Part shown: positions 1 through 48,556 of the stretch, piece after piece
Position numbering within the stretch: position 1 is the first letter of the stretch
How the letters are laid out: every line of letters starts with the position of its first letter
Source of the DNA: a virus
Taxonomy: Duplodnaviria; Heunggongvirae; Uroviricota; Caudoviricetes
Virus record (IMG/VR): IMGVR_UViG_2706794697_000013
Length of the DNA stretch: 48,556 nucleotides
Direction: 5' to 3' (one strand)
Made by a program: the position numbers and the translations under genes
The notes under the pieces: model-generated
What the model was told of the DNA's origin: nothing
Database searches by the model: none
The model's input: the letters and a program-made list of their open reading frames with translations, nothing else

Positions 1-137
1 CACAACATCCGAGGACAGCATCGTCCGCTGGCCCACAGAAGTCCGGAAAGTCATGGAAGGTCGTTGTTGGGAGGAGGTACAAATTCTCTCATGCAAAAAA
101 TACGTAAAATCGATAATAGCTGGAAATAATTCAATAC

Positions 138-198
138 ATGCACTCTCGAAAGTGCATCAGCCAACCGCAGAACGTTATTGCATACAACGTTTCTGCGG
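138..198 (-). terminator. Two adjacent hairpins 3' of tfa (candidate end of late operon)
   Basis: Inverted repeats ATGCACTCTCGAAAGTGCAT (138-158) and CCGCAGAACGTT..AACGTTTCTGCGG (166-198) just past the tfa stop; no clean U-run, so weak. Confidence 0.25.
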
Positions 199-212
199 CA
201 TAATCCCAATGA

Positions 213-797
213 TTACTCCCTGACAGGGTTCGTAGGCCACTCAATATCAGGTGCAGTTGACGTATCAACACGGTTCAGCAATACCCGATACTTTTTCCAT
301 GCTTCCAGCAACGAGATTTCTTCCTCCGTTGCAATTTCCAGATCTGCAGCATCCTGAAGCGGCGCAATATGCTCACTGGCTACCTGCATCAGGTTGTTTT
401 TTGTTTCTTCCGCCTCCCGGATCCGGAACAGTTTTTCTGCTTCCGTATCCTTCACCCAGGCTGTGCCGTTCCACTTCTGAAACTCCCCTTCCGGCGATAA
501 CCAGGTAACATTTTCCGGTAACGGACCGAGTTCAGAAATAAATAACGCGTCGCCGGAAGCCACGTCATAAACCGTTTTACCCCGATGATCTTCAACGAGA
601 TGCCACGATGACTCATCACTGTTGAAAACAGCCACGAAGCCAGCCGGAATATCTGGCGGTGCAATATCGGTACTGTTTGCTGGCAGACCTGTATGAGGCG
701 GAATATATGCATCACCTTCACCAATAAATTCATTAGTTCCGGCCAGCAGATTATAAATTTTTATGGTCCGTGGTTGTTCACTCATTCTGAATGCCAT
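213..797 (-). CDS. tfa: Tail fibre assembly protein (lambda Tfa / TfaR-like)
   Basis: 194 aa ORF immediately after the stf stop (shared boundary at 797); sequence pattern as recalled for lambda Tfa. Confidence 0.85.
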
Positions 798-3757
798 TAT
801 GCAAGCCTCACAATATAGTTAAATGCGATGTTTTTGACGGTGTTTTCCGCGTTACCAGCAGCGTTAACGGTGATGGTGTGTCCATGTGAACCAATCGCAA
901 CGGAGTGCGTATGAGCACCAATACCGACAGTATGCGCGTGTGCACCTGCAGATGCTGCTGTGCCGGACAGTGAATGGCTATGATTACCATCTATACTGGT
1001 ATTCGCTAACCACCCCGTAGACATACCTACTGAGCCTTGTACACCCCAGGTATTTTGACCTGAGCTTGTATAACCATATTGATAAGTATCTTTAAAAACA
1101 CTGGGGTTAAATCGACGGCCATCTCTATGGCTGTGATTACCAGCTGCATTCGTGCTGCCACTTAAACTATGGGTATGCGCACCAGTGTTATTCGTGGATT
1201 TAGTGCCGTAATCAAACGACGATGTGGTTTTCGTCCCCAAATCCGTACTGGATGCGCTGGCGCTGTGGGTATGCGATTTAATGCCGTCCTGTTCCTGAGA
1301 CAATACGGCCCGACCACTGGCAGGTTTGCCCTTAATCGTCCAGCCACGCATATCAGGGATCACGCCTGACGGATAAGCCGCTGCAAGTTTCGGGTATGCA
1401 GATTTGTCAAAAGCCTGCCCCTGCATCAGGGCATAGCCAGACGGAACGGTATCTGATGGCCACGGGATTGGTGCGCCAGGCGGATAAAACTGCTCTGATG
1501 GCGTATAGAGTGAATAAACTGTACCGTCCGTTAACCCTTCCGGCTTATTAGCAGAATATGCTGGTGACGTATGAATCGTCACGCTGGCATTACTGGTATA
1601 ATCCCATTGAATATTTACACCAGTCGCATAATTTCCGATTGCAACGTAAATATCGTAAGTATCACCAGATGTATTAACCCAGGCAAAATTTGTAAACCCT
1701 GTCAATGTGCGCTGCCATAAAGCACCAGTAATCCCCTTCGGATTACCATTACCTGCACGTAAAACAAGTTCAGATATACCTGCCTGTTGAGGTGACCCCA
1801 CGTTAAATCCAGCGCCACCAATCAACGTAATTGAAACAACAGAACTCGCCTGTGGCATGGTTACCGTTGCTAATTTGAACCAACCAGCACCACCGCTGAA
1901 TGACATTGTTGTTGAGTTAAGCGTACCAATATCTTTCGGCGTCAGTGTTATATCCGCTGAAAGCGCCTTACCATTCACCTTACGGGCAGAAGGTACCCGA
2001 CCATTCGCATTGTCATTAGCTGCTTTCACTGCTTTCGGTGTCGCAGCAAGCGTTTCAGATGTGCTGTTGGTTGCACTACTGAGCTGGACAATTCCTTTTT
2101 GTGCTGTCGTAGCGTCCTGTGCGGTGTATTTCCCGTTAGCCAGGTCATACGCGGCCTTAACGGCTTTTGGCGTTGCCGCCTGTGACTCGGAAGTGCTGTT
2201 AGTCGCACTGCTGAGCTGAACTATCCCTTTCTGTGCTGTCGTTGCATCCTGTGCGGTGTATTTCCCGTTAGCCAGGTCATACGCGGCCTTAACGGCTTTT
2301 GGCGTTGCCGCCTGTGACTCGGAAGTGCTGTTGGTCGCACTGCTGAGCTGTACTATCCCCTTTTTCGTCGTGCTCGCATCCTCAAGCGCCACGGCGGATG
2401 CAATATCCTCTGCCCGTTTTGCTGCTGTCTCGGCGCGCGTTGCCGCGGATTCCGCCGTACTTTTGCTCTGTGCTGCCGCTGCCGCACTGCCAGCAGCCTC
2501 TGTCGCCTTCGTGGATGCCGTCGTGGCGCTGCCCCTCGCTGCTGACGCCTGTCTGGTCGCCTCATCTTTTGAAGCAGACGCAGATGATGCCGATGACGCC
2601 GCCGAACTGGCGGACGATGCGGCAGCCGTTTTTGAGGATTCTGCGCTGGTTTCCGACGCTTTCGCGTTCGTTTCGGATGTCTTCGCTGCGGAAGCAGACC
2701 TCGCTGCTGCGCTGGCCTGTTCAGTGGCTTCGCCAGCCTTCGTTGTGGCTGTTGAAGCGGATGATGCGGCGCTTTCTGCCGATTTTCCGGCGGCGGTGGC
2801 ACTGACTGCTGCCTCCTCTGCCTTAATGGACGCCTCACGGGCCGATGATGCAGCTGCTGTCTCAGAGTCTGCCGCAGCTGAGGCGCTCTGTTCCGCTGCC
2901 GTTTCAGAAGACTTAGCATTCGTCTCGGACGTTTTTGCCGCCTTCACGGAATTTCCTGCCGCCGTTGCCGAGGAGGCTGCACTGCTGGCGCTTGTGGAGG
3001 CGTTCGTTTCTGATGATTTTGCCGCCTCTTTGGAGGCCGCCGCATCTCTGGCTGAAGTGGCGGCTTCTGACGCTTTCGTTGTCGCAGTGGATGCAGAAGT
3101 GGCTGCTGATTTTTGTGACGCTGCAGCATTCGTTTCTGACGTTTTCGCCGCACCGGCACTGGTGGCCGCCGCGCTTTTTGAGGACTCTGCAGCGGCAGCA
3201 CTTTTTGATGCTTCAGTGGCCTTTGTTGATGCCGTTCCTGCGCTGGAAGACGCCTCCTGAGCCGAAGTCGCGGCCTGTCCGGCTGACGTGCTGGCTGCAC
3301 GCGCTGAGCCTGCAGCATCAGTCGCATGGGTTGCCGCCTCACGGGCAGATGTGCCGGCATCACTGGCTGACTTCTTCGCGGCTGCCGTGTTCTGTGCCAC
3401 CGCGGACGCGTTACGCGCCACCTCTTCCACCATCAGTTCAAAACGGCGCAGAGCCTCCGGACGGGCATCATCCTCCGTCATGGCACCGAGAAAATCATTC
3501 AGCGTACCGGGTCGGGAATCTTCATACACAGTGATGGTCCCGGCATGTGACGGCGGGAATCCTTCCACCAACAGAATAACGCTGTACTGACCGTACTCAA
3601 CGTCCATGCTGTAACGCCCGGCTTCATCCGGATTTTCTGAGGCCAGCGTGTTCACCACCACCGTGGTGCTGTTACGTTTTGCTTTCAGCTGGATTGTGCA
3701 GTTCTGTACCGGTTTTCCTGTGCCGTCTTTCAGTACACCTGAAATCTTTACTGCCAT
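797..3757 (-). CDS. stf: Side tail fibre protein (lambda Stf / StfR-like)
   Basis: N-terminus [20 protein letters not shown] as in lambda Stf (ORF track starts 2 codons earlier at a GTG); long Ala/Ser-rich shaft; C-terminal part differs from lambda. Confidence 0.85.
1990..2350. repeat. Tandem 132-bp repeat inside stf (44-aa fibre repeat, 2 full copies plus a diverged third)
   Basis: gcggtgtatttcccgttagccaggtcatacgcggccttaacggcttttggcgttgccgcctgtgactcggaagtgctgtt recurs at 2121 and 2253; protein repeat [44 protein letters not shown]. Confidence 0.8.
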
Positions 3758-3764
3758 ATTCACC

Positions 3765-3795
3765 CCACAAAAAAGCCCGCCTGAACCGGCGGGCT
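3765..3795 (-). terminator. Rho-independent terminator after lom
   Basis: Minus strand AGCCCGCC-ggttca-GGCGGGCU followed by UUUUUUG, between the lom stop and the stf start. Confidence 0.6.
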
Positions 3796-3821
3796 GTCAT
3801 AACACTGTGTTACCTGGCTAA

Positions 3822-4473
3822 TCAGAATTTATAACCGACACCCACGATGAAACCGTCAGTGCGCCAGTCGCCACTGCCGGAGCCTTCATAAGCAATATCA
3901 ATGGCCACGGATTCGGTCGGGTTAAACTGCACGCCAGCTCCCCACGCCAGAGACGTGTTGCTGTGGCGACCGTCATCACTTCCGGTCAGCACGTCGTGCG
4001 TTTTCCCCTTGTTGTCAGTTACGCGGAGATAATCCCCGGAGAAAGTCGACACACGGCTGTAAGCCACACCCGCCATCGCATACGCGCTGAACCATTCATT
4101 CACGCGCACAGACGGCCCCGCCATTACGCTGAACCAGCGGTTACGAACGGAATCTTCATGCCAGCGGGTATCGCTGTAACGGGTCAGCTGGCGATTCTTG
4201 TCTCCTGCATAGCTGAATGACGTCACCAGCCCCAGNNNNNNNNNNNNNNNNNNNNNNNNNNNNNNNNNNNNNNNNNNNNNNNNNNNNNNNNTCCGTAAAC
4301 TCATAACGGTATTTCACGTTAATCCCGTTCAGATCATCACTGCCGGGAACGTTGGTCCGGGCATGAAGATACCCCGCGCTCAGCGTGGACTGATGTTCAG
4401 ACGCCCATGCAGGCGCACCGGATACGGCCAGACAAATGGCTGCGGACAAAATTGCTGCACAAACTTTACGCAT
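3822..4473 (-). CDS. lom: Lom-like outer membrane protein (interrupted by an N-run at 4236-4291)
   Basis: N-terminus MRKVCAAILSAAICLAVSGAPAWASEHQSTLSAGYLHA and C-terminal beta-barrel sequence as recalled for lambda Lom; two ORF-track pieces are in frame across the N-run. Confidence 0.75.
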
Positions 4474-4543: not shown

Positions 4544-7500
4544 TCAACGAATACTGATGCCGGAAGCCGCTTTTTTGGTCACAATCACCGTACAGTCGGT
4601 GATATTGCCTGCCCCCTGATTGCCTTTCTGGAAAATCTTAAACTCCAGAGTGACGCTACCACCACCACTAGGCATATCAATAACTGCACTGTAACTACCG
4701 GGAATGGCCCCTTTAGTTTCTCTGGATGCGATTAATACGCCGTTTTTGCGAACTTCAAAACCATAACCCGTGTATCGCGTGCCTCCTGGGTTATTTCCGC
4801 TCCCCGGATCGTCATACGCTATACCGTTAAAAATAATGGGCGGAATAATAATCTGGCGGTCAAAGTTATGATCATCGCTGATGGTGACTGTAACCGTACC
4901 GTCTGGTGTTTCCGTGTTACCCCACGTACCGACTTTTTTCGGGAAGGCTTTTGATACAGCTTTAACGAAATCCCCTCTGACCTGGGTCGCCTCCAGCATG
5001 CCCTTAATCGTACAGTTCTGGTTAATCGTGACATTGTTGAGCGTTCCTGAGTTCGCATTCACACTACCACTGATATCCGCATTTTTAGCGGTCAGCTTTC
5101 CGTCTGATGTCAGGGAAAATACCGGAGGACTGCCACCGCTGGTAATGGCGGGGGCTGTCAGGCGCTTCAGGAACACGTCGTTCATGAATATCTGGTTGCC
5201 CTGCGCCACAAACATCGGCGTTTCATTCCCGTTTGCCGGGTCAATAAACGCGATACGATTGGCGGCAACCAGAAACTGGCTCAGCTTGCCTTCCTCCGTG
5301 TCCTCCATGCTGAGGCCAATACCCGCGACATAATGTTTGCCGTCTTTGGTCTGCTCAATTTTGACGCCCCACATCGCATTCCATTTATCGTTAGCGTCCT
5401 TCCACTCTTTCGAAAACTCATCCAGTCTGCTGGCGTTATCCTCCGTCAGATCAACTTTTTCCAGCAGCTCTTTACCGAGATGGGATTCGGTTATCTTGCC
5501 TTTGAAAAAATCCAGGTAACCTTCCGCATCATCGCTCGCCCGACCGACGGCCTCCACGAATGCCGATTTGCCAACGGTGTTCACACTGCGGATATAAAAG
5601 TAATAATCATGGCCCGGTTTGATATTGATACTGGCGGCTATCCAGTACAGCCCCGCGCCAAGGTAGCGGGCTGTGGTTTCAACCTGCCTGATATCGGTAA
5701 TCCGCGTTTCCGAGAACCAGAACTCAAACTGTACCGTCGGATCATAAACCGCAAGATGCGGCGTGGCAGTTATCTGAAAATAGCCCGGCGTCAGCTCAAT
5801 CCGCGACGGTGCTACCGGTGCGGCAATCCTGAACGATACCGACGCCGGATCGCCCTGCTGTCCCCAGGCATTTACCGCCCGGACTGTCAGCGTGTACCGT
5901 CCCAGCGCCAGTTGCGTGAAGCGGTATGTGGTTTCCGTCGTCCGGGCCGTGCTGACCAGCCGCTCACTGCCGTCATCCGCTGCCACGGTCAGGCGAAGCA
6001 TAAAGCTCACCCCCTTCACCACCTTCGGCGTGTCCCAGCGCGCCAGCACCTGATATTCCCCGCTGTCTGCGGTGACTTCGGCAGTCAGGTGCTGCACCGC
6101 TGGCGGCGTGACACCATTCACCGTGCCGCTCTGGTCGCCGTCAAAGTGCGCCCCGTTATCCACGATGGCTTCTTTTTCCGGTACATGCTGCACGGCAGTG
6201 ATGGCATACGTGCCGTCATCGTTCTCACGGATACTCACACAGCGGAACAGGCGCTGGCGCAACGTCGGCAGCTTCAGCCCCCACACGCTGTATTCAGCAA
6301 CGCCGTCAGGAACACGGCTCACTTTCACCTTCACGCCGTCGGTGACGGACTGAACCTCCACGCTGACCGGATTGCCACTTCCGTCAACCAGGCTTATCAG
6401 CATGGTACCGGAGGATGGCAGCGTGATTTCACGGTCGAGCGTCAGCGTCCGGGTCTGGCTGTTTACCGCCAGCACGCGCCCGCCGATGCTGATACCCGCA
6501 TAGTCATCATCACAGATTTCAATGACATCGCCCGGCACATGGCGAAGCCCTTCTGCGCCCACGCTGAAGTCCACGGTCTGCGTTTCCAGCAGTTCTGTTT
6601 TAATCAGCCACAGCCCGGCGCGGTGTGCCTGCCCCCGGCTGGTACAGCCAAAAGCATCCATCTTCGTGACGTTACGACCGTAACGGGCAATGGCCTGCGT
6701 ATCCTCCACAAGCTCTGTCGCCGTCTCCCAGCCGTTATCCGGGTCAATCCAGTTCACCTCAACGGCATTATGGCGGTCTTTCAGGGCGCTGAAGCTGTAG
6801 CGGAACGGCGCGCCATCATCCGGCATCACCACATTACTGCGGTTATAGGTCCACACCTTATCCGACGGTCGGTCCTGCACGAACGTCAGCGTCTGCCCGT
6901 TCCATACCGGCATACAGCGCATCGCCGAGCAGAAATCACTGAGCACATCCCACGCCTTGCGCTGTGTGGTCAGGTACGCATTACAGGTGATGCGCGGCTC
7001 CGTGCCGCCAAAGCCGTCCGGCACTGACTGGTCGCAGTACTGGCCGATGACATACAGCGCCCATTTGTCCACATCCGCCGCACCAAGACGTTTCCCCATG
7101 CCGTAGCGCGGGTGGGTCAGCATATCCCACAGACACCAGGCCATGTTGTTGCTGTATGCTGGTTTTAACGTTCCGTCCCAGATACCGCTGTATTGTCGCG
7201 TCTGCGGGTTATAGTTCGACGGCACCTGCAGAATGCGCCCGCGAAGATGATAATTACGACTCACCTGCTGGCTGCCGAACTGCTCCGAGTCCACCTGTAC
7301 GCCGACCAGTGCAGTGTTCGGGTAGCACTGTTTCACATCGATGATTTCGGTGTATGACGACCAGAGCGTTTTGTTCTGCAGCTGGTCTGTGGTGCTGTCC
7401 GGTGTCATCCTGCGCATCCGGATACTGAACGGGCGCGGAGGCAGGTTATCCACCACCACCGAGACCAGATACTGCGAGGTGGTTTTGCCCTTAATGGTGA

Positions 7501-7957
7501 TGTCTTTTTCCGTCACCCAGCCACCGTTACGCTGTATCTGAACCAGCAGGCGGACTTCCGACGGATTCCTGTCTCCCTTTGAGGTGGTTTCCACCAGTGC
7601 CTGTACACCGAAGGTAAAGCGCAGACGGTCGATGTTTGCCGACGTGATGGTCCGGGTGATCGGCGTGTCATATTTCACTTCCGTACCCAGCACCGTCTCG
7701 GAGCCGGAGGATTCAAACCCCTCCGGCGGTGACTGCTCCTGCTCACCTGCCCGGAACACCACCGTGACGCCGGAGATGTTGGTATTCCCCTCATTGTCCA
7801 GCACCGGCGTACTGTTCAGCAGCACGCTTTTTAATCCATCCACCGGACCTTCAACCGGCCCTTCACTGATGGCATCGATCACACTCAGCAGCTGCGTGGA
7901 CTTCAGGTTGTCCTTCGCTTCGCGCGGGGTATGCCCCTTACTGCTGCCTTTACCCAT
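4544..7957 (-). CDS. J: Tail tip host-specificity protein J (lambda J-like, divergent C-terminal receptor-binding region)
   Basis: 1137 aa; N-terminus [24 protein letters not shown] and most of the length follow lambda J as recalled; last ~150 aa differ. Confidence 0.9.
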
Positions 7958-8017
7958 TCCTCACGCTCCATAAACGACAAAACCGCCCGCAGGCGGTTTC
8001 TCATAAAACATTTTGCA

Positions 8018-8665
8018 TCAGCGACCAATCACCACAACCTGACCACCATCCCCTTCGTCTGCCGTGCTGATCTCCTGAGAAACCACACGTGACCCCACGC
8101 GCATTTCCCCGTACAGAACAGGCAGAACATTACCCTGGGCAACCATGTTATCCAGTGACGAGAAATACGTGTTCTGTTTGCCGTTATCTGTACTGGCTGC
8201 CGTGGGCGTCCTGGCTTTCGGTGCCAGCATCTGCGCCACACCACCCAGGATCATACTGGCCCCTGCTGCATACATACCCGATACAGCCGCGGCCCCCAGC
8301 CAGCCCACAGGGTTCCACCATGCCACCGCAATCAGCGCCGCACCCAGCACCGCCTGAAACACACCGCCACTTTTGGCACCCGCCAGACGCGGAACGATGT
8401 GGATCACGGCACCATTTGCCAGCGGTTCATTAAGACGGGCAGATAATTCATTTTCGCCTGCATCACGCCCGGCAATGCGCACCTGATACCAGCCGTCGCT
8501 CAGTTTCTGACGAAATGCCGGGAGCTGTGTGGCCAGTGCCCGGATGGCTTCGGCCCCCGTTTTCACACGAAGGTCGATGCGGCGGCCAAATCGCTGCAAA
8601 TCCCCGTAAAGGCAGATGCGTGCCATGCCCGGTGACGCCAGAGGGAGTGTGTGCGTCGCTGCCAT
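8018..8665 (-). CDS. Tail assembly protein I-like
   Basis: 215 aa ORF between J and K in lambda gene order; start overlaps the end of K. Confidence 0.7.
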   Translation of the reverse strand: MAATHTLPLASPGMARICLYGDLQRFGRRIDLRVKTGAEAIRALATQLPAFRQKLSDGWYQVRIAGRDAGENELSARLNEPLANGAVIHIVPRLAGAKSGGVFQAVLGAALIAVAWWNPVGWLGAAAVSGMYAAGASMILGGVAQMLAPKARTPTAASTDNGKQNTYFSSLDNMVAQGNVLPVLYGEMRVGSRVVSQEISTADEGDGGQVVVIGR

Positions 8666-9291: not shown

Positions 9292-9339
9292 ATCGCCGGG
9301 CGTGCGCCAGAATCGCTGATTCTGTCTGTGTCATGGGAT

Positions 9340-17337: not shown

Positions 17338-17345
17338 TTGAATGT

Positions 17346-35622: not shown

Positions 35623-35637
35623 GTATGACCTGCGCTA

Positions 35638-37215: not shown

Positions 37216-37230
37216 AAGCGCCTCCGGCAA

Positions 37231-37992: not shown

Positions 37993-38014
37993 AAAAATTT
38001 CCTCCCGGTAAAAA

Positions 38015-38761: not shown

Positions 38762-38767
38762 GGTCAG

Positions 38768-39625: not shown

Positions 39626-39637
39626 GGAAACTTTTGC

Positions 39638-40060
39638 TTAATGAACAATGACAGAATCGTCGGAAGACCCGCCGCCGCTGAAATGCGCTTTCCGGTAAAC
39701 GGCTTGGACTGCATCATCATGCGCATCAATTGCCGTACTTAACGCTTCCTGCGCCGCCAGTAATGCACGGCGTTCCAGGGTATCGAAGATGCAGAGTCGG
39801 TGACGCAGCTCGCGCGGAAGGATTGCCAGAATTGCTGGGATCAGCTTCTGAATTTTTTCTCTTTGCGTTTTCGTTTCACCTTTCAACCAACGGTGATAGA
39901 TATTCTGCTGATTATTCCAGTCCTTGCCTGGTACCAGGGGCAATTCGCCGCCCCCCTGGCGCAGATATTCTTCAGTAATGGCATTGGCTACCCATGCCTG
40001 CCCTTTTTCGGCTGCCAGGGCTAACAACACTGACTCGATGTGCTCATGCTTGATTTTCAT
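39638..40060 (-). CDS. ydaT: CII-like regulator / toxic protein YdaT
   Basis: 140 aa ORF immediately downstream of the cro-like gene; matches Rac gene order and length. Confidence 0.7.
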   Translation of the reverse strand: MKIKHEHIESVLLALAAEKGQAWVANAITEEYLRQGGGELPLVPGKDWNNQQNIYHRWLKGETKTQREKIQKLIPAILAILPRELRHRLCIFDTLERRALLAAQEALSTAIDAHDDAVQAVYRKAHFSGGGSSDDSVIVH

Positions 40061-40311
40061 GAATCAACTCCCATCAGCTTTTTCGTAGTAGTTTTATTTC
40101 TGCCAATAGTTAAAATTACATCAGCAGAAAATAATCCGTTTGATGCATGAGCGATTTTTTCAGCGTAATTTGTTTCGCCGGTATATTCTGTGCGAGGCAA
40201 TTTTCCGTTATCCATCCATTTGTAGATTGCTCTTTGGCTGACACCACAAACGTCGGCCACAACAGAAACGCGAACAGTTTTGATTACATCTTCAAGTGTT
40301 TTCTGGTTCAT
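40057..40311 (-). CDS. ydaS: Cro-like HTH regulator YdaS
   Basis: HTH ..DVCGVSQRAIYKWMDNGKLP..; ATG at 40311 with GAGGGTG RBS; divergent from the repressor gene; exact start uncertain. Confidence 0.65.
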   Translation of the reverse strand: MNQKTLEDVIKTVRVSVVADVCGVSQRAIYKWMDNGKLPRTEYTGETNYAEKIAHASNGLFSADVILTIGRNKTTTKKLMGVDS

Positions 40312-40372
40312 ATCACCCTCACAATGTGAACTTTGAGTACATGCTATAACAGAACTGACAGTACATTCAAGA
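40312..40372. promoter_or_regulatory. Divergent promoter/operator region between racR and ydaS (OR analogue)
   Basis: 61-bp spacer containing AGTACAT twice (40335, 40360) and a TGAACT..AGTACA near-palindrome; plausible TTGAAT-16-TATAGC promoter on the minus strand. Confidence 0.5.
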
Positions 40373-40810
40373 GTGAATATCATTGAACTTATGGTTCATG
40401 AAGATAAAGCGCGTAAAGAGTTCGCCAGTAGGCTTGCGCTAGCCTGTGAAAACGCTGGTTATGAACAACATGGAAGGCAGGCAGAAATTGCCCGTCGAAT
40501 GAAATTAACACCAAAAGCGGTTAGCAAATGGTTTAATGGCGAAACAATTCCTCGCCGAGAGAAATTAAGGGAATTAGCAACACTCATTGGAACAACACCA
40601 ACCTATCTTTTGGGAGAGGATACAGAAGAAAGTGGACAGGTACGTTTCTATCAGGAGTTAAATCCAAGACAAAAAATCATCATTGACCTTCTGGACGAGC
40701 TCCCTGACAGTGAGACAGATGAACTTTTAAAAACTCTTGAGGAGAAAAAACAGAAGTACAATGCAATTTACGAAGAGCTAGCACGAAAGAAAAAACAAAA
40801 AGCCTCTTAA
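40373..40810 (+). CDS. racR: Prophage repressor (CI analogue)
   Basis: 145 aa with N-terminal HTH (..QAEIARRMKLTPKAVSKWFNGETIP..); divergent from cro-like gene; Rac gene order. Confidence 0.75.
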   Translation: MNIIELMVHEDKARKEFASRLALACENAGYEQHGRQAEIARRMKLTPKAVSKWFNGETIPRREKLRELATLIGTTPTYLLGEDTEESGQVRFYQELNPRQKIIIDLLDELPDSETDELLKTLEEKKQKYNAIYEELARKKKQKAS

Positions 40811-40879
40811 ACCAGCATAAATCCGGTAGCGTCCCCCTCCGGGTTTGTGCTTCACTTTATCCCATCTCATTTTTTTACA

Positions 40880-40935
40880 CACAAAATGTACTTATAGTAC
40901 TTTACATCAATGAACACAAAGTACATTATATACCT
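40880..40935 (+). promoter_or_regulatory. Early-left promoter with operator-like repeats (OL/pL analogue)
   Basis: ATGTACTTATAGTACTTTACAT and AAGTACATTATATA carry the same GTAC(A/T)T motif as the OR side; TTTACA-17/18-(C)ATTATA promoter-like spacing. Confidence 0.45.
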
Positions 40936-41100: not shown

Positions 41101-41235
41101 ATGGTGCATTACGAAGTAGTTCAGTATTTGATGGATTGTTGCGGTATCACTTACAACCAGGCTGTGCAGGCTTTACGCAGCAACGACTGGGATCTCTGGC
41201 AGGCAGAAGTCGCTATACACAGCAACAAGATGTGA
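41101..41235 (+). CDS. ydaG: Rac early small protein YdaG
   Basis: 44 aa MVHYEVVQYLMDCCGITYNQAVQALRSNDWDLWQAEVAIHSNKM, recognised. Confidence 0.7.
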   Translation: MVHYEVVQYLMDCCGITYNQAVQALRSNDWDLWQAEVAIHSNKM

Positions 41236-41245
41236 GATTCGCAAA

Positions 41246-41401
41246 ATGCAAAAAATCGACCTCGGCAACAACGAATCCCTGGTGTGCGGCGTGTTCCCCA
41301 ACCAGGATGGAACGTTCACTGCCATGACGTATACCAAAAGCAAAACATTTAAAACCGAAACTGGTGCGCGCCGATGGTTGGAGAAGCACACAGTAAGCTA
41401 A
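41246..41401 (+). CDS. ydaF: Rac early small protein YdaF
   Basis: 51 aa MQKIDLGNNESLVCGVFPNQDGTFTAMTYTKSKTFKTETGARRWLEKHTVS; below ORF-track cutoff, read from DNA. Confidence 0.65.
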   Translation: MQKIDLGNNESLVCGVFPNQDGTFTAMTYTKSKTFKTETGARRWLEKHTVS

Positions 41402-41886
41402 CGATTAAAACGTCTACTCCTGCTGTTCCAGAATAACTTCATAAAATGGGAGTATTTTTCGGTGACGAGATAATAAGAACAGTTTGCGCTATCACTCTGA
41501 TGTTGAATGATGCCCTTCCGTTCTAATTTTTTCATAACCGGGTTACGGCAAGGAGAAGTGATAATAAGATTTCCTGTTTTAAGGAAATCTTTAAATACAG
41601 CGATTTCTTTCTCAGATAAACGAAGCAATACTCGTTGCTCTGGTAGTAATGAATAATGCTTTTGAATATGTGCTCGCAATCTTGAGAAGGAAATGGCGAC
41701 CACGAAAGAAAAGGCAAAAACGATAATCTGAAAGAGCCAAGGTATTTCAGTATAAGCATTGAATGCGACAGTAAACTCTTTCGGTATCAGCCAGAGAGTG
41801 AGACCAAAAATGATAATCGTATACATAAGTATTTCGAGTGGCTCGTTAGCAAAAAGTTTCAACAATGGAGTAAATACATCCAACAT
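41398..41886 (-). CDS. sieB: Superinfection exclusion protein B
   Basis: 162 aa from ATG at 41886 (MLDVFTPLLKLFANEPLEILMYTIIIFGL..), membrane protein, opposite strand to flanking early genes as in Rac. Confidence 0.8.
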   Translation of the reverse strand: MLDVFTPLLKLFANEPLEILMYTIIIFGLTLWLIPKEFTVAFNAYTEIPWLFQIIVFAFSFVVAISFSRLRAHIQKHYSLLPEQRVLLRLSEKEIAVFKDFLKTGNLIITSPCRNPVMKKLERKGIIQHQSDSANCSYYLVTEKYSHFMKLFWNSRSRRFNR

Positions 41887-42327: not shown

Positions 42328-42549
42328 ATGATTGCACATCACTTCGGAACTGATGAAATACCACGTCAGTGTGTGACTCCTGGCGATTATGTTCTTCATG
42401 AAGGCCGGACATATATTGCCTCGGCAAACAATATTAAAAAGCGAAAACTATATATTCGTAACCTGACCACAAAAACATGCATTACTGACCGCATGATTAA
42501 AGTCTTCCTCGGTCGTGATGGTTTACCTGTAAAGGCGGAGTCATGGTGA
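42328..42549 (+). CDS. kilR: Cell division inhibitor KilR
   Basis: 73 aa [73 protein letters not shown], recognised. Confidence 0.85.
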
Positions 42550-42719
42550 TGACTAAGAAAATAAAATGTGCTTACCACCTTTGCAAAAAAGACGTTGAAG
42601 AAAGCAAAGCTATTGAAAGAATGCTTCACTTCATGCACGGGATTTTATCAAAAGACGAACCGAGAAAATATTGCAGTGAAGCTTGTGCCGAAAAAGACCA
42701 GATGGCACATGAACTTTAA
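42549..42719 (+). CDS. ydaE: Cys-rich small protein YdaE
   Basis: 56 aa [56 protein letters not shown]; start overlaps kilR stop (ATGGTGATG); below ORF-track cutoff. Confidence 0.7.
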   Translation: MTKKIKCAYHLCKKDVEESKAIERMLHFMHGILSKDEPRKYCSEACAEKDQMAHEL

Positions 42720-42793
42720 TTAATTGACTATTCGAAACTGAATTTATGCCAGAAATGGCAGGTATTCGCTCAACCTTAATTAAGGAGAAAAAC

Positions 42794-43069
42794 ATGATTA
42801 CCAATTATGAAGCCACTGTTGTAACTACCGATGACATTGTTCACGAGGTGAATCTGGAAGGAAAGCGCATTGGCTACGTAATTAAAACAGAAAATAAAGA
42901 AACCCCATTCACTGTGGTTGATATCGATGGTCCATCAGGCAACGTAAAAACACTTGATGAAGGTGTCAAAAAAATGTGCCTGGTGCATATCGGAAAGAAT
43001 CTGCCCGCAGAAAAAAAAGCCGAATTTCTGGCAACTCTAATTGCAATGAAATTAAAAGGTGAAATCTGA
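42794..43069 (+). CDS. racC: RacC
   Basis: 91 aa from MITNYEATVVTTDDIVHEVNLEGKRIGYVIK.., recognised; sits upstream of recE. Confidence 0.75.
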   Translation: MITNYEATVVTTDDIVHEVNLEGKRIGYVIKTENKETPFTVVDIDGPSGNVKTLDEGVKKMCLVHIGKNLPAEKKAEFLATLIAMKLKGEI

Positions 43070-43170
43070 AAGAAATAGCCTGCGTATGGCGCAGGCTATG
43101 AACAGTGTGTATCCGGCAAGATCATTCACTGAACAAAACGAATTTTAATCTGAGTTGAGGTTAAAAAACA

Positions 43171-45771
43171 ATGAGCACAAAACCACTCTTCCTGTTACGG
43201 AAAGCGAAAAAATCATCCGGTGAACCTGACGTCGTCCTGTGGGCAAGCAACGATTTTGAATCGACCTGTGCCACTCTGGACTACCTGATCGTTAAGTCAG
43301 GTAAAAAACTGAGCAGCTATTTTAAAGCTGTTGCCACGAATTTTCCTGTCGTTAATGACCTGCCCGCTGAAGGTGAGATCGATTTTACCTGGAGTGAACG
43401 CTATCAACTCAGCAAAGACTCCATGACATGGGAACTAAAACCGGGAGCAGCACCAGACAACGCTCACTATCAAGGCAATACCAACGTCAACGGCGAAGAC
43501 ATGCCTGAGATTGAGGAGAATATGCTACTCCCAATTTCTGGCCAGGAACTGCCCATTCGTTGGCTTGCTCAACACGGCAGCGAAAAACCGGTAACGCACG
43601 TTTCACGCGACGGACTCCAGGCATTACACATTGCTCGGGCTGAAGAACTACCGGCTGTTACTGCCCTGGCTGTTTCCCACAAAACCAGCCTGCTCGACCC
43701 GCTGGAAATTCGCGAACTCCACAAACTGGTTCGTGACACTGACAAAGTTTTCCCTAATCCTGGTAATTCAAACCTGGGACTGATAACTGCTTTTTTCGAA
43801 GCATACCTGAACGCTGACTACACCGATCGAGGACTGCTGACAAAAGAGTGGATGAAGGGTAATCGTGTTTCACACATCACTCGCACGGCTTCCGGTGCTA
43901 ATGCTGGCGGCGGAAACCTCACCGATCGCGGCGAAGGTTTCGTACACGATCTGACGTCACTGGCGCGGGACGTAGCCACTGGCGTACTGGCCCGTTCAAT
44001 GGATCTGGACATCTATAACCTTCATCCGGCACACGCTAAACGCATTGAGGAAATTATCGCTGAAAATAAACCGCCCTTTTCTGTTTTCCGCGACAAATTC
44101 ATCACCATGCCTGGCGGGCTGGATTATTCCCGCGCCATCGTGGTTGCGTCCGTAAAAGAAGCACCAATTGGGATCGAGGTCATCCCCGCGCACGTCACTG
44201 AATATCTGAACAAAGTACTGACTGAAACCGATCATGCCAACCCTGATCCGGAAATCGTGGATATTGCCTGCGGTCGCTCCTCTGCCCCGATGCCGCAGCG
44301 AGTAACAGAAGAAGGAAAACAGGATGATGAAGAAAAACCGCAACCATCTGGAACAACGGCAGTTGAACAGGGAGAGGCTGAAACAATGGAACCGGACGCA
44401 ACTGAACATCATCAGGACACGCAGCCGCTGGATGCTCAGTCACAGGTAAATTCTGTTGATGCGAAATATCAGGAACTGCGGGCAGAACTCCATGAAGCCC
44501 GGAAAAACATTCCATCAAAAAATCCTGTCGATGCCGATAAATTGCTTGCTGCATCACGTGGTGAATTTGTTGACGGAATTAGCGACCCGAACGATCCGAA
44601 ATGGGTAAAGGGGATCCAGACTCGCGATTGTGTGTACCAGAACCAGCCAGAAACGGAAAAAACCAGCCCGGATATGAATCAACCTGAGCCAGTAGTGCAA
44701 CAGGAACCGGAAATAGCCTGCAATGCCTGCGGCCAGACTGGCGGGGATAACTGCCCTGACTGTGGTGCGGTGATGGGCGACGCAACATACCAGGAAACAT
44801 TCGATGAAGAGAGTCAGGTTGAAGCTAAGGAAAATGATCCGGAGGAAATGGAAGGCGCTGAACATCCGCACAATGAGAATGCTGGCAGCGATCCGCATCG
44901 CGATTGCAGTGATGAAACTGGCGAAGTCGCAGATCCCGTAATCGTAGAAGACATAGAGCCAGGTATTTATTACGGAATTTCGAATGAGAATTACCACGCG
45001 GGTCCCGGTGTCAGTAAGTCTCAGCTCGATGACATTGCTGATACTCCGGCACTGTATTTGTGGCGTAAAAATGCCCCCGTGGACACCACAAAGACAAAAA
45101 CGCTCGATTTAGGAACCGCTTTCCACTGCCGGGTACTTGAGCCGGAAGAATTCAGTAACCGCTTTATCGTAGCACCTGAATTTAACCGCCGGACAAACTC
45201 CGGAAAAGAAGAAGAGAAAGCGTTTCTGAGGGAATGCGCAAGCACAGGAAAAACGGTTATCACTGCCGAAGAAGGCCGGAAAATTGAACTCATGTATCAG
45301 AGCGTTATGGCTTTGCCGCTGGGGCAATGGCTTGTTGAAAGCGCCGGACACGCTGAATCATCAATTTACTGGGAAGATCCTGAAACAGCAATTTTGTGTC
45401 GGTGCCGTCCGGACAAAATTATCCCTGAATTTCACTGGATCATGGACGTGAAAACTACGGCGGATATTCAACGATTCAAAACCGCTTATTACGACTACCG
45501 CTATCACGTTCAGGATGCATTCTACAGTGACGGTTATGAAGCACAGTTTGGAGTGCAGCCAACTTTCGTTTTTCTGGTTGCCAGCACAACTATTGAATGC
45601 GGACGTTATCCGGTTGAAATTTTCATGATGGGCGAAGAAGCAAAACTGGCAGGTCAGCTGGAATATCACCGCAATCTGCGAACCCTGGCTGACTGCCTCA
45701 ATACCGATGAATGGCCAGCTATTAAGACGTTATCACTGCCCCGCTGGGCTAAGGAATATGCAAATGACTAA
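43171..45771 (+). CDS. recE: Exodeoxyribonuclease VIII (RecE)
   Basis: 866 aa, [41 protein letters not shown].., same length and sequence as K-12 RecE as recalled. Confidence 0.95.
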
Positions 45772-46573
45772 GCAACCACCAATCGCAAAAGCCGATCTGC
45801 AAAAAACTCAGGGAAACCGTGCACCAGCAGCAATTAAAAATAACGACGTGATTAGTTTTATTAACCAGCCATCAATGAAAGAGCAACTGGCAGCAGCTCT
45901 TCCACGCCATATGACGGCTGAACGTATGATCCGTATCGCCACCACAGAAATTCGTAAAGTTCCGGCGTTAGGAAACTGTGACACTATGAGTTTTGTCAGT
46001 GCAATCGTACAGTGTTCACAGCTCGGACTTGAGCCCGGTAGCGCCCTCGGTCATGCATATTTACTGCCTTTTGGTAATAAAAACGAAAAGAGCGGTAAAA
46101 AAAACGTTCAGCTAATCATTGGCTATCGCGGCATGATTGATCTGGCTCGCCGTTCAGGTCAAATCGCCAGCCTGTCAGCCCGTGTTGTCCGTGAAGGTGA
46201 CGAGTTTAATTTCGAATTTGGCCTTGATGAAAAGTTAATACACCGCCCAGGAGAAAACGAAGATGCCCCTGTTACCCACGTCTATGCTGTCGCAAGACTG
46301 AAAGACGGAGGTACTCAGTTTGAAGTTATGACGCGCAAACAGATTGAGCTGGTGCGCAGCCAGAGTAAAGCTGGTAATAACGGGCCGTGGGTAACTCACT
46401 GGGAAGAAATGGCAAAGAAAACGGCTATTCGTCGCCTGTTCAAATATCTGCCCGTATCAATTGAGATCCAGCGTGCAGTATCAATGGATGAAAAGGAACC
46501 ACTGACAATCGATCCTGCAGATTCCTCTGTATTAACCGGGGAATACAGTGTAATCGATAATTCAGAGGAATAA
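45764..46573 (+). CDS. recT: Single-strand annealing recombinase RecT
   Basis: 269 aa from [23 protein letters not shown]..; start overlaps recE stop; ORF track extends upstream in frame. Confidence 0.95.
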
Positions 46574-46628: not shown

Positions 46629-46823
46629 ATGAGATATGACAATGTTAAACCATGTCCATTTTGTGGTTGTCCATCAGTAACGGTGAAAGCCATTTCAGGA
46701 TATTACCGAGCGAAGTGTAACGGATGCGAATCCCGAACCGGTTATGGTGGAAGTGAAAAAGAAGCACTCGAACGATGAAATAAACGAACCACTGGAAATA
46801 ATAATGGAGGTGTTCATGTATAA
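46629..46823 (+). CDS. ralR: Restriction alleviation protein RalR (Lar)
   Basis: 64 aa MRYDNVKPCPFCGCPSVTVKAISGYYRAKCNGCESRTGYGGSEKEALERWNKR.. read from DNA. Confidence 0.8.
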
Positions 46824-47004
46824 AATTACCGCCACTATTGAAAAGGAAGGTGGCACTCCTACTAACTGGACAAGATATTCAAAATCTAAACTAACGAAAT
46901 CAGAATGCGAAAAAATGCTCTCAGGTAAAAAAGAAGCAGGCGTTTCCAGAGAGCAGAAAGTAAAACTGATAAATTTTAATTGCGAGAAACTTCAGTCCTC
47001 GTGA
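46816..47004 (+). CDS. ydaC: YdaC
   Basis: 62 aa from MYKITATIEKEGGTPTNWTRYSKSKLTKSECEKM..; ATG overlaps ralR stop. Confidence 0.6.
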   Translation: MYKITATIEKEGGTPTNWTRYSKSKLTKSECEKMLSGKKEAGVSREQKVKLINFNCEKLQSS

Positions 47005-47103
47005 ATTGCATTGTATTCAAATTAAAACTTCATAGCTGATTATTAATAATCAACATCGGGCGTCAATTTAAGTCTAACATTGGCGCCTGCCAGAGGTGAT
47101 GCG

Positions 47104-47319
47104 ATGGCACAAGTAATCTTTAATGAAGAGTGGATGGTTGAATACGGCCTGATGCTTCGCACTGGTCTGGGGGCCAGACAAATTGAAGCATACCGCCAGA
47201 ACTGTTGGGTGGAAGGCTTCCACTTCAAACGAGTATCTCCTTTAGGGAAGCCAGACAGTAAGCGAGGGATTATCTGGTATAACTATCCAAAGATAAATCA
47301 GTTTATCAAAGACTCATGA
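47104..47319 (+). CDS. xisR: Excisionase
   Basis: 71 aa [71 protein letters not shown], immediately upstream of int. Confidence 0.85.
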
Positions 47320-47320
47320 T

Positions 47321-48556
47321 ATGTCTAAATTACCAACAGGTGTCGAGATTCGAGGTAAATACATTCGCATCTGGTTCATGTTTCGAGGAAAACGATGTCG
47401 GGAAACATTGAAAGGCTGGGAGGTTACTAACAGTAACATTAAAAAAGCCGGGAATTTAAGAGCGTTGATAGTTCATGAAATCAATTCCGGTGAGTTTGAG
47501 TATTTAAGACGTTTTCCCCAGTCCAGCACTGGGGCAAAAATGGTGACAACGAGGGTCATAAAAACGTTCGGGGAGCTTTGTGATATCTGGACAAAAATTA
47601 AAGAAACAGAGTTAACAACAAACACAATGAAGAAAACGAAATCACAATTAAAAACACTCAGGATAATAATTTGTGAGAGTACTCCGATATCGCATATTCG
47701 TTATAGCGATATCTTAAACTACCGGAATGAACTGCTGCATGGAGAAACGCTTTACCTGGATAATCCAAGATCCAACAAAAAAGGAAGAACCGTGCGCACA
47801 GTTGATAACTATATCGCCCTGCTCTGTTCGTTGTTACGTTTTGCGTATCAGTCGGGATTTATATCAACCAAACCATTTGAAGGAGTAAAGAAATTACAGA
47901 GAAACAGAATAAAGCCTGACCCGTTATCTAAAACAGAATTCAATGCATTAATGGAAAGTGAAAAAGGACAGAGCCAGAACTTGTGGAAATTTGCCGTATA
48001 CTCCGGGCTTCGTCACGGGGAACTGGCTGCTCTGGCGTGGGAGGATGTGGATTTCGAGAAGGGAGTTGTGAATGTCAGAAGAAACCTGACGATACTGGAT
48101 ATGTTCGGTCCCCCAAAAACAAATGCGGGGATCCGGACGGTAACACTACTGCAGCCTGCTCTTGAAGCACTGAAGGAGCAATACAAACTGACCGGGCATC
48201 ATCGCAAAAGCGAAATCACTTTTTATCATCGGGAGTACGGCAGAACCGAAAAGCAAAAACTGCATTTTGTTTTCATGCCCAGAGTGTGTAACGGAAAACA
48301 GAAACCTTATTACTCGGTAAGCAGTTTGGGTGCGAGATGGAATGCAGCAGTAAAACGTGCTGGTATTCGCCGCCGTAATCCGTACCATACGCGGCATACT
48401 TTTGCCTGCTGGCTGTTGACGGCAGGAGCGAACCCGGCGTTTATAGCCAGCCAGATGGGGCATGAAACTGCGCAGATGGTGTATGAAATTTACGGTATGT
48501 GGATTGATGACATGAACGACGAACAGGTAGCCATGTTGAATGCGCGGTTATCGTAG
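47321..48556 (+). CDS. intR: Tyrosine integrase
   Basis: 411 aa with C-terminal catalytic region (..RHGELAALAWEDVD..HTRHTFACWLLTAGANPAFIASQMGHETAQMVYEIYGMW..); stop at window end. Confidence 0.95.
   Translation: MSKLPTGVEIRGKYIRIWFMFRGKRCRETLKGWEVTNSNIKKAGNLRALIVHEINSGEFEYLRRFPQSSTGAKMVTTRVIKTFGELCDIWTKIKETELTTNTMKKTKSQLKTLRIIICESTPISHIRYSDILNYRNELLHGETLYLDNPRSNKKGRTVRTVDNYIALLCSLLRFAYQSGFISTKPFEGVKKLQRNRIKPDPLSKTEFNALMESEKGQSQNLWKFAVYSGLRHGELAALAWEDVDFEKGVVNVRRNLTILDMFGPPKTNAGIRTVTLLQPALEALKEQYKLTGHHRKSEITFYHREYGRTEKQKLHFVFMPRVCNGKQKPYYSVSSLGARWNAAVKRAGIRRRNPYHTRHTFACWLLTAGANPAFIASQMGHETAQMVYEIYGMWIDDMNDEQVAMLNARLS

Follow-up and report, generated by a model that had tools for sequence, protein, structure and literature searches.

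We found that the DNA analysed here, a 48,556-nt stretch that we call the window, covers almost the whole of a temperate lambdoid siphovirus prophage. The prophage is full length and belongs to the Rac family, in the type that integrates in the 5' end of ttcA; we put the probability of this reading at about 0.88. By blastn, roughly 39 kb of the window aligned at 99.95-100% identity with a prophage adjoining ttcA in E. coli NCTC10444, whose genome is closed, and about 17 kb aligned at 94-99.9% with K-12 Rac, similarity far above chance. The parts matching NCTC10444 at this level are window positions 1-500 and everything beyond 8000, and in that genome the element lies between sitD and ttcA. Membership in the Rac family is supported by IntR and XisR, which are 98.8% and 100% identical in amino acid sequence to their K-12 counterparts, and by the colinear recE-recT-ralR/kilR/sieB early-left region. 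The lambda-like functional gene order, together with segments similar enough to lambda to be able to recombine with it, makes the element lambdoid.

The window ends exactly with the intR stop codon, and the att sites would lie outside it, at positions that can be placed from the NCTC10444 copy. There, one copy of a 43-nt imperfect att repeat falls within ttcA codons 3-17 and the other lies between uspF and sitA; past window position 1 the element continues for about 3.9 kb, across sitABCD, up to the latter copy. sitABCD is inside the att repeats in NCTC10444, and the unit is about 52.5 kb long. The features of the window are listed in Table 1.

Table 1. Features of the window, with the evidence for each assignment.
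Feature	Position	Strand	Basis
Spacer adjoining the sitD stop codon in NCTC10444; not a prophage end	1..212		100% identical to NCTC10444
lom (N run 4236-4291), stf (~986 aa), tfa	213..4473	-	
Lambda-type tail tip L, K, I, J	4544..10038	-	87-93% DNA identity to lambda; K with N run 9003-9287
Tape measure (1077 aa; K-12 ynaA = first 312 aa) and M-like protein	10038..13602	-	
Tail chaperone G (= ydaY) and -1 frameshift extension T	13768..14435	-	phrog_313, phrog_1189; 100% aa to K-12 ydaY region
Connector and tail shaft: Ad1, Hc1, Neck1, tail terminator, tail tube	14586..17123	-	Full-length PHROG; Pfam Phage_tube_2
TerS, TerL (Terminase_6N/6C), DUF4055 portal, Mu-F-like head protein, scaffold, P22-coat-family capsid, 58-aa protein	17127..24334	-	Full-length PHROG, Pfam
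ParB_N protein (262 aa), TAGT-family glycosyltransferase (310-316 aa), 69-aa protein	24338..26238	-	PF02195, PF20691, phrog_620, phrog_842
trkG potassium transporter (moron)	26376..27833	-	99.6% aa to K-12 TrkG; GC 36-41%
Lysis cassette: P21-type holin, lysozyme, Rz	27971..29144	-	Pfam Phage_holin_2_1, Phage_lysozyme; Rz 95% aa to lambda
Rz1 embedded in Rz	28030-28215	-	ORF list
Two TolA-C-terminal-domain proteins with lipobox-like N-termini	29396-29770, 29942-30370	-	Pfam TolA
STnc100 RNA	30481-30667	-	Rfam RF02076
Q-like antiterminator (DUF1133), DUF1364/HNH-like, DUF1367	31415..32926	-	Pfam DUF1133, weak Phage_antitermQ, phrog_131
Low-GC (33-41%) cargo and nin-like segment, missing from K-12	33638..37230		
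DUF1971	33638-34000	+	
333-aa protein of unknown kind	34621-35622		
320-aa HEPN (RiboL-PSP) family protein	35638-36600		
DUF977/Ren-like	36799-37230		
ydaT (CII analogue), ydaU, ydaV (DnaC-like loader), full-length ydaW (DUF1627)	37231..40060	-	94-99.6% aa to K-12; Pfam DUF1376 and IstB/DnaA ATPase
Immunity module, not of the K-12 Rac type	40057..40934		No similarity to YdaS/RacR
cro-like gene at the ydaS position	40057-40311	-	No similarity to YdaS
Three operator-like repeats	40328-40399		Repeat and motif clustering
DicA-like HTH repressor at the racR position	40391-40810	+	Only Pfam HTH_3; weak DicA hit (NCBIfam)
Two further operator-like repeats and PL-like promoter	40886-40929		Repeats, promoter-like sites
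ydaG-like and ydaF; sieB	41101..41886	+; - (sieB)	DNA 98.7% to K-12; SieB 99.4% aa
Early-left operon kilR, ydaE, racC, recE, recT	42328..46573	+	98.5-100% aa to K-12
ralR (W50 stop, 49 aa) and rcbA/ydaC (R63 stop, 62 aa)	46629..47004	+	K-12 alignment
Antisense RalA sRNA	46822-47000	-	Rfam RF02694, 225 bits
xisR excisionase	47104..47319	+	100% aa to K-12 XisR
intR tyrosine integrase	47321..48556	+	98.8% aa to K-12 IntR; PGAP name in NCTC10444 copy

Read from the integrase end, the genome is laid out as int-xis and a recET/kil early-left operon, followed by a repressor and a divergent cro-like gene that probably share operators. Next come ydaT as a CII analogue, ydaU/ydaV for replication, nin-like and cargo genes and a Q-like antiterminator, and then holin-lysozyme-Rz/Rz1, trkG, the ParB_N/glycosyltransferase pair and terminase. 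The remainder is predicted to encode a scaffold-built head of the HK639 type, a neck, tube and tape measure of the element's own kind, a lambda-type L, K, I, J tip, and lom-stf-tfa. Every visible morphogenesis gene from TerS to Tfa is full length, matching PHROG profiles end to end, and the lysis cassette, Q-like gene, replication genes, int/xis and the G/GT slippery site are present as well. Three-frame translation places the slippery A AAA AAG at 14088-14082, right before the G stop, from where it leads into an open -1 frame. The original prediction of a K-12 Rac relative with a full, mosaic structural module is therefore borne out by the TerS-Tfa profiles and the colinear alignment; its further description of the element as intact holds only for the visible part of the sequence. 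Three runs of N (4236-4291, 9003-9287 and 32680-32926; 588 bases in total) cover some of lom, about 100 codons (~40%) of K, an essential tail gene, and the beginning of DUF1367. The hidden N-terminus of DUF1367 was located by tblastn of the NCTC10444 protein, and the visible part of K is 100% identical to that of NCTC10444.

Judged by its sequence relationships, the mosaic structural region draws on at least four origins. Lambda and the window element share overall gene order, and L, K, I, J, lom, the stf C-terminus, tfa and Rz are 72-95% identical in amino acid sequence (tfa 94%, stf C-terminus 72%, J 88%, I 79%, L 94%). At the DNA level, identity to lambda is 87-93% in the main blocks (window 163-10060, ~9.9 kb with gaps and one N run) and 94% in Rz. 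The similarity is confined to L through tfa and Rz. It is weaker in M, at 42% aa, and in the tape measure, at 28%, and falls to 30-35% over the receptor-binding end of J (its last ~150 aa); GC content steps from 55-60% to 42-49% near position 10,000. The tail had been called lambda-like from M through tfa; this description fits L to tfa, but M and the tape measure are only distantly similar and the tube not at all. Lambda terminase, portal, capsid, tube and chaperone gave no tblastn hit at E<1e-3, so no homologues of the lambda virion proteins A, B, C, E, V and G/T were detected and the element would not make a lambda-type virion (HK97-fold head with protease, lambda tail shaft); nor was similarity to lambda detectable in the neck, replication, immunity, recombination, int, holin or endolysin genes. 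The packaging and head genes are thus not of the lambda type, as had been proposed. From portal to capsid they instead resemble those of HK639 (portal 69%, Mu-F-like protein 50%, scaffold 65%, capsid 75% and a small head-proximal protein 62% aa), whereas the HK639 terminase, neck and tube are dissimilar and its tail tip is ~30% identical. Because of the T4-type terminase domains and the Mu-F-like protein, the genome would probably be packaged by a headful mechanism.

Purifying selection is evident in comparison with the copy in EAEC 042: dN/dS pooled over 26 genes was 0.14, with values of 0.05 for capsid, 0.09 for portal and 0.07 for TerL. At a coverage of at least 80% at one place, the structural half (window 1-24000) was found in 657 of 5426 complete E. 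coli genomes (12%), and the early/regulatory half with trkG and lysis (24001-48556) in 87 of the same 5426.

Comparison with K-12 Rac (NC_000913.3, 1411899-1434958; blastn and tblastn) showed that the two elements are colinear. The order of intR, xisR, ydaC/rcbA, ralR, recT, recE, racC, ydaE, kilR, sieB, ydaF, ydaG, ydaT, ydaU, ydaV and trkG is kept, at 94-100% amino acid identity, and the remnants ynaK, ydaY, ynaA, lomR, stfR and tfaR follow the same order; window 40935-48556 forms one block of 98.7% DNA identity. The expected match of the early and immunity region and trkG to K-12 Rac was thus found for these genes, but not at the racR and ydaS positions. Across window 40067-40934, no DNA or protein similarity to RacR/YdaS was detectable by blastn or tblastn, K-12 having racR/ydaS in place of the window's repressor and cro alleles. 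Since neither its cro gene nor its repressor gene is related to ydaS or racR, the element is heteroimmune to K-12 Rac, a member of the Rac family with a different immunity type. Five of eight motif matches fall in two operator-like groups flanking the repressor. No induction route and no SOS link is visible: the repressor carries an HTH only, with no self-cleavage (S24) domain in Pfam, the LexA box CTGT-N8-ACAG has no match in the window, and family scans of the window genes detected no antirepressor.

Relative to the window, K-12 Rac shows three clean deletions of 8.4, 11.6 and 9.1 kb (window 4220-12667, 14428-25984 and 28416-37542) and an IS5, located in lom. Joining window sequences separated by these distances exactly explains the K-12 junctions, each of which has a 2-bp microhomology (TG, TT and TA). 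The genes cut by the deletions are whole in the window: the K-12 tape measure ends at residue 312 of 1077, the ParB-like YnaK consists of the first ~87 of 262 aa of the ParB_N protein (K-12 match, residues 1-89), and the ydaW product (DUF1627) ends at residue 168 of 270, fused to Rz from residue 8. Since the junctions cut genes that are whole in the window, K-12 Rac is the derived form. K-12 Rac is accordingly a decayed descendant of an element with exactly the window's architecture, produced by three illegitimate deletions and an IS5 insertion, and the suggestion that the window represents the ancestral form is upheld. A swap of the immunity module and a different attR-proximal end, with pinR-ynaE-ynaM at the site of the NCTC10444 sitABCD, further set K-12 Rac apart. 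The K-12 "orphan" genes ynaK, ydaY, ynaA, ydaW and rzpR can now be matched to the parent phage genes of which they are stumps. The opposite polarity, in which K-12 Rac is an older compact form and the window has gained modules, might draw on the frequent description of Rac as an ancient fossil, for which PMC4632033 gives an age of more than 4.5 Myr. We give it practically no credence: every K-12 junction cuts an open reading frame that is full length both in the window and in PHROG families, by which it is already refuted.

The mosaic could also be an artefact of assembly, with the N runs as scaffold joins made between contigs of different prophages at repeats that several lambdoid prophages share. 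The genes that hold the three N runs would be among those that commonly recur in co-resident lambdoid prophages, and the lengths of the runs (56, 285 and 247) differ from the corresponding NCTC10444 intervals (4, 257 and 242 nt), as expected for estimated scaffold gaps. However, the order across all three gaps is the same in the closed NCTC10444 and EAEC 042 genomes, the sequences bordering the K and DUF1367 gaps on either side match NCTC10444 at 100%, and window 1-500 corresponds to the end of that NCTC10444 prophage next to sitD. Given this agreement in order and flanks, we judge a mis-scaffolded chimera very improbable and retain the reading of one contiguous prophage.

The identity, gene content, junctions and purifying selection of this prophage were demonstrated; that this copy can still make particles is a tentative proposition, with a chance somewhat short of even. 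Indirect evidence for excision, replication and particle release comes from the pooled dN/dS of 0.14 and the precedent of KingRac (PMC6731689). With a similar probability, also short of even, the prophage has kept all its genes but does not complete the cycle, owing to a lesion in an N run, a genome that trkG and sitABCD make too long for the head, or the want of a working induction signal. The N runs do fall in K, lom and DUF1367. The unit of ~52.5 kb with sitABCD compares with 49.6 kb for HK639, the sole isolated phage with a related capsid protein, and the genome could therefore exceed the capacity of the head. LexA box, S24 domain and antirepressor are all missing from what was found, the characterised relative KingRac is only weakly induced by mitomycin C (PMC6731689), and no isolated phage among 50,697 records carries the module, though its half of the window is so common in complete genomes. 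Against such a defect, the flanks of the K and DUF1367 gaps show 100% identity to NCTC10444, a genome with intact K, lom and DUF1367, head and tail dN/dS values of 0.05-0.2 argue for recent selection for function, and neither the frameshift signal nor any of the overlapping gene junctions has been lost.

Elements of this kind are already known, and the finding is a sound but ordinary one that leaves current understanding unchanged: full-sized Rac-like prophages are on record (PMC5917428, PMC6379469), active ones have been described, and the same architecture is present in EAEC 042. Prophage 042p3 (ROD21) of that strain, published in 2010, is 50.4 kb long with sitABCD at its tail end (PMC2808357). 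It aligned with the window over 36.8 kb at 82-98% and shares the ttcA site, gene order, trkG, the ParB_N/TAGT pair and the genes for head and tail, with sitDCBA following the tail fibres; its repressor (WP_000233320.1) is identical to that of the NCTC10444 copy. It differs in the cargo between ydaW and the nin genes (QueH, hokD), in its recE/recT alleles and tail fibres, and in having two tRNA genes rather than TolA-like genes between Q and holin; a tRNA scan of the window found none. KingRac, an active Rac-like phage from a mouse commensal E. coli, is a full-sized lambdoid prophage of 46.8 kb at ttcA (PMC6731689, PMC12251178). Its particles are tailed, and on lysogenising K-12 it takes the place of Rac at ttcA (PMC6731689). 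It shares the rcbA R63 stop allele with the window. Because trkG is not named among the genes in its gene table, comparison by that table suggests a late region different from the window's, and KingRac could not be confirmed as the same element. The LT-IIa-encoding Rac-like prophage Rac-SA53 (KU052037) shares the ttcA site, Int (99.5%), Xis (100%), KilR, RacC, YdaT (96%), ydaW (91-94%), the Q-like gene (76%) and TerS (75% aa). It differs in immunity, recT, toxin genes and a contractile-tail-type late region with a baseplate gene, and has no similarity to the window's head and tail genes. In a collection of 50,697 phage records, no isolated phage shared the head module at >83% aa. The near-identical records there include PHASTER predictions, and GenBank "phage" entries such as vB_EcoS-666R9, predicted by PHASTER from draft genomes, were rejected as proof of particles. 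The chief value of the window is as a clean reference for the base-by-base derivation of K-12 Rac, the source of RecET recombineering, KilR, RalR/RalA and TrkG.

The ParB_N and TAGT genes are translationally coupled and lie just upstream of the terminase genes (window 24525-26238). They may form a packaging-linked DNA glycosylation module that acts in the absence of TET dioxygenase and C5-methyltransferase, the known partners of this glycosyltransferase family, although we consider this unlikely. If true, Rac-type coliphages would have a DNA modification that is still uncharacterised and occurs in a substantial share of E. coli strains, one overlooked because K-12 lost the pair and kept only the stump ynaK. 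PDB sequence searches with the glycosyltransferase and two unknown proteins gave no hits. Among ten cargo candidates, PADLOC returned nothing beyond the ParB_N domain, which resembles that of ParB-methyltransferase fusions. A two-gene system made up of the 333-aa and 320-aa proteins is unsupported, as Aeromonas prophages carry the 320-aa HEPN protein on its own. Rfam matches in the window were limited to RalA, STnc100 and IS009. Chromosomal sitABCD and trkG are confirmed as travelling cargo of the Rac phage family.

We compared the window with positions 1409000-1439000 of the K-12 chromosome (NC_000913.3) by blastn, and found that the defective Rac prophage of K-12 matches it in eight colinear blocks of 94.5-99.9% identity, with three long segments missing (see table). 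All three K-12 junctions are exact joins of two window flanks at a 2-bp microhomology (TG, TT and TA), and every one of them cuts an ORF that the window has at full length. YnaA corresponds to residues 1-312 of the 1077-aa tape measure, YnaK to the N-terminal ~87 residues of a 262-aa ParB_N protein, and YdaW to residues 1-168 of a 270-aa DUF1627 ORF, joined to Rz from residue 8. Because the exact joins truncate ORFs that are whole in the window, we infer that K-12 Rac is the derived form and that its ancestor had the window's head and tail module, which bears out the original prediction that the window is an ancestral-type form of Rac. In the near-identical copy carried by the closed genome of E. 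coli NCTC10444, RefSeq labels ynaK (2239-2496 of stretch L002; window 25981-26238) a pseudogene with a truncated C-terminus. There the 262-aa ORF is uninterrupted and has the window's sequence, and in enteroaggregative E. coli (EAEC) 042 the copy is annotated as a full-length gene; the RefSeq label was probably carried over from K-12 as an annotation artefact.

Features of the window and its alignment to K-12 Rac
Feature	Position	Strand	Length	Remarks
K-12 colinear block				tfaR, stfR (blastn)
K-12 colinear block				both lomR halves, with IS5 of K-12 in between (blastn)
K-12 colinear block				ynaA, ydaY; 99.9%
K-12 colinear block				ynaK, trkG, rzpR; 99.3%
K-12 colinear block				ydaW, ydaV, ydaU, ydaT; 98.3%
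K-12 colinear block				ydaG through intR; 98.7%
Missing from K-12	4220-12667		8,448 bp	part of lom, J, I, K, L, M, tape measure from residue 313
Missing from K-12	14428-25984		11,557 bp	tail tube through terminase, glycosyltransferase, most of ParB-like gene
Missing from K-12	28416-37542		9,127 bp	Rz first codons, lysozyme, holin, Q region, nin-like and cargo genes, C-terminal third of ydaW
IS009	256-454	-		Rfam; inside tfa
N run	4236-4291		56	
J receptor-binding end	4544-5000	-		
N run	9003-9287		285	
ParB_N/glycosyltransferase pair	24525-26238	-	262 and 310-316 aa	
TolA-domain ORFs	29396-30370	-	124 and 142 aa	
STnc100 RNA	30481-30667	-		Rfam; between Q-like gene and lysis genes
N run	32680-32926		247	
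DUF1971 gene	33638-34000	+		
Two cargo genes	34621-36600	-	320 and 333 aa	320-aa protein at 35638-36600
Repressor	40391-40810		139 aa	HTH_3 sole domain; sub-threshold DicA-like match
Divergent gene beside repressor			84 aa	Cro-like
ralR and rcbA	46629-47004	+	49 and 62 aa	

We searched 5,426 complete E. coli genomes with the window by megablast, counting a half as present where one place covered at least 80% of it. By this measure 24001-48556 was found in 87 genomes and 1-24000 in 657, which shows that prophages of this kind are common in E. coli. The top match was the closed chromosome of NCTC10444 (NZ_LR134092.1, 2715227-2763809), where the copy is flanked by sitD and ttcA. Identity is 100% over window 1-500 and 99.95-100% from ~8000 to the end; the sole divergent part (~500-8000, 83-97%) comprises the 5' part of tfa, stf, lom and J, and reflects recent replacement of these host-range genes by recombination.

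The window ends at the stop codon of int, and so contains no att site. In NCTC10444, a 43-nt imperfect repeat (39/43 identical) lies in codons 3-17 of ttcA, 59 nt past int, and its second copy lies between uspF and sitA, a position whose K-12 counterpart is the ttcC pseudogene; K-12 homology reaches ~150 bp inward of this second copy. Because an att-type repeat is found beyond sitA, sitABCD lies inside the prophage ends, and the window therefore lacks ~3.9 kb of a unit of ~52.5 kb. The sitABCD genes (3376-7461 of L001, another NCTC10444 stretch) adjoin window position 1 and are flanked by the tail-fibre assembly gene and the attR-type repeat; K-12 Rac carries pinR-ynaE-ynaM there instead. Position 1 is the base directly after the sitD stop codon; this left edge looks like a cut at a gene boundary and is unlikely to be a phage end. 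The attR-to-sitA junction was present in one piece in 502 of the 5,426 genomes. As tail-end cargo, sitABCD was described in 2010 for a 50.4-kb prophage of EAEC 042 (PMC2808357), which likewise occupies ttcA and shares the window's architecture.

The prediction that the element is intact held for its visible part: we looked for frameshifts and truncations and found none in any visible essential gene, and the N runs, notably the one in K, remain masked. PHROG profiles were covered essentially end to end by TerS, TerL, portal, Mu-F-like head protein, scaffold, capsid protein, a 58-aa protein, Ad1, Hc1, Neck1, tail terminator, tube, chaperone G, tape measure, M, L, I, J and Stf, and the Pfam domains Terminase_6N/6C, DUF4055, Phage_Mu_F, P22_CoatProtein and Phage_tube_2 were present. 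The chaperone gene, the homologue of K-12 ydaY, ends in the codons ATA AAA AAG CCA TAG, and at its heptamer A AAA AAG a -1 shift gives access to an open frame coding for a phrog_1189 segment, which is the conserved G/GT frameshift arrangement. The lysis set consists of a P21-type holin, lysozyme and lambda-like Rz/Rz1; upstream lies a DUF1133 protein, a weak Q-antiterminator match, and STnc100 is possibly a late-transcript leader. A scan of the window found no tRNA genes. In favour of a functional prophage, conservation extends to the frameshift signal, the overlaps between genes and the switch, and dN/dS against the EAEC 042 copy is 0.14 when pooled over 26 genes (capsid, 0.05; portal, 0.09; TerL, 0.07; tape measure, 0.18); purifying selection has acted on the head and tail genes since the split from that copy.

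The three N runs correspond to intervals of 4, 257 and 242 nt in NCTC10444, a difference of +52, +28 and +5 nt. Because their lengths differ from these intervals while the flanking sequence in K and DUF1367 is identical to NCTC10444, they look like gaps left by scaffolding, with estimated lengths, real insertions being the unlikely reading. The gaps would lie at sequences shared with other lambdoid prophages.

Other observations, like the N run in K, may count against a functional prophage. No LexA box was found in the window, no S24 domain in a domain scan of the repressor, and no antirepressor in family scans. Among the 50,697 records of a phage collection, no isolated phage had the window's head module at >83% amino acid identity. 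Near-identical vB_EcoS 'phage' records were rejected as isolated phages, being PHASTER predictions, and the near-identical record SPF_0923 was not counted as one either. Phage HK639 was the sole isolated phage in this search with a related capsid. Because the 52.5-kb unit is longer than the HK639 genome (49.6 kb), we infer that head capacity could be limiting.

A lambda-like tail with a non-lambda head had also been predicted, and this stands in outline, with the boundary moved to the M/L junction inside the tail, where lambda similarity stops. By blastn, lambda DNA similarity of 87-93% is limited to window 163-10060, where it ends ~22 nt inside M; Rz is lambda-like as well. At the protein level, identity to lambda is 94% for Tfa, 88% for J, 79% for I, 94% for L and 95% for Rz, falling to 42% for M and 28% for the tape measure; protein comparison detected no lambda similarity in G/T, tube, neck, head or terminase. 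Over its first 1000 residues J shares ~96% identity with lambda J, against 30-35% in its last ~150, the receptor-binding end, which implies that its receptor specificity would differ from lambda's LamB. The portal, Mu-F, scaffold and capsid of HK639 are 50-75% identical to the window's, whereas its terminase and tail shaft are unrelated; TerS of the Rac-like element Rac-SA53 is 75% identical to the window's. GC content is 55-60% in the lambda-like part, steps down to 42-49% across the remaining structural region, and is 33-41% in trkG and the cargo segment.

Contrary to the original proposal, the genes at the racR and ydaS positions proved not to be RacR and YdaS. By blastn, window 40067-40934 shares no DNA similarity with K-12, and the window's repressor and Cro-like proteins have no tblastn match in K-12. 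We searched the whole window for GAACnnnnnGTACAT, allowing at most one mismatch, and found three copies in the 80-bp divergent intergenic region (40328-40399) and two just downstream of the repressor (40886-40926), over a promoter-like site facing the early-left operon; these account for five of the eight matches. The two clusters, which overlie promoter-like sites, look like candidate OR and OL operators of the window's own immunity type, an arrangement which argues that the element is a heteroimmune member of the Rac family. The repressor accession is identical in EAEC 042 and NCTC10444. YdaS and YdaT have been viewed as analogues of Cro and CII (PMC5917428, PMC9986795). Relative to K-12, ralR has a premature W50 stop (64 aa in K-12) and rcbA a premature R63 stop (69 aa in K-12), and the RalA antitoxin RNA is complete. 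The R63 stop is also present among variants derived from KingRac (PMC12251178).

The original prediction is correct in substance, for a kind of element already known and an architecture already published. That K-12 Rac is incomplete, with a complete version in other strains, has been stated since 2001 (cited in PMC6379469). 'Full-sized Rac-like prophages', Rac-SA53 among them, bear LT-II toxins (PMC5917428), and rac-like prophages at ttcA include Sp10 and CP-933R (PMC4632033). KingRac, a 46.8-kb Rac-like phage, is weakly mitomycin-inducible, forms tailed particles and, in the mouse gut, displaces the Rac of K-12 (PMC6731689, PMC12251178). Our analysis adds the exact deletion map, the immunity swap, the places where the parts of the mosaic meet and how far the element really extends.

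Several side genes accompany these modules. Directly upstream of terS, a ParB_N gene, of which K-12 ynaK is a stump, overlaps by 26 nt a gene for a TAGT-family 'GREB1-related' glycosyltransferase (PF20691, E = 4e-34; phrog_842), whose DDD motif may be a candidate GT-A DXD site. The pair recurs in three distant contigs, where it precedes terminase genes of different types and the stop codon of one gene overlaps the start codon of the next. In two of these contigs the upstream partner has a ParB_N match, and in the third it has no recorded Pfam match. Neither a TET gene nor a methyltransferase gene lies near the pair. In a segment of 38-41% GC, a 320-aa cargo protein belongs to the HEPN (RES-NTD1 / RiboL-PSP) family (122 homologues), and its 333-aa neighbour has only a weak GNAT-like match; neither has a PADLOC match. 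The 320-aa protein may be an abortive-infection gene product, because it is of a HEPN family found solitary at prophage ends, as in Aeromonas. Between the Q-like gene and the holin, where EAEC 042 instead has two tRNA genes, two ORFs encode proteins with lipobox-like N-termini and a TolA C-terminal domain, which, speculatively, may protect against colicins or filamentous phages by serving as TolA decoys in the periplasm. Lastly, a DUF1971 gene (TehB N-terminal domain-like) is transcribed against the surrounding operon and sits in the window's lowest-GC kilobase (32.7%).
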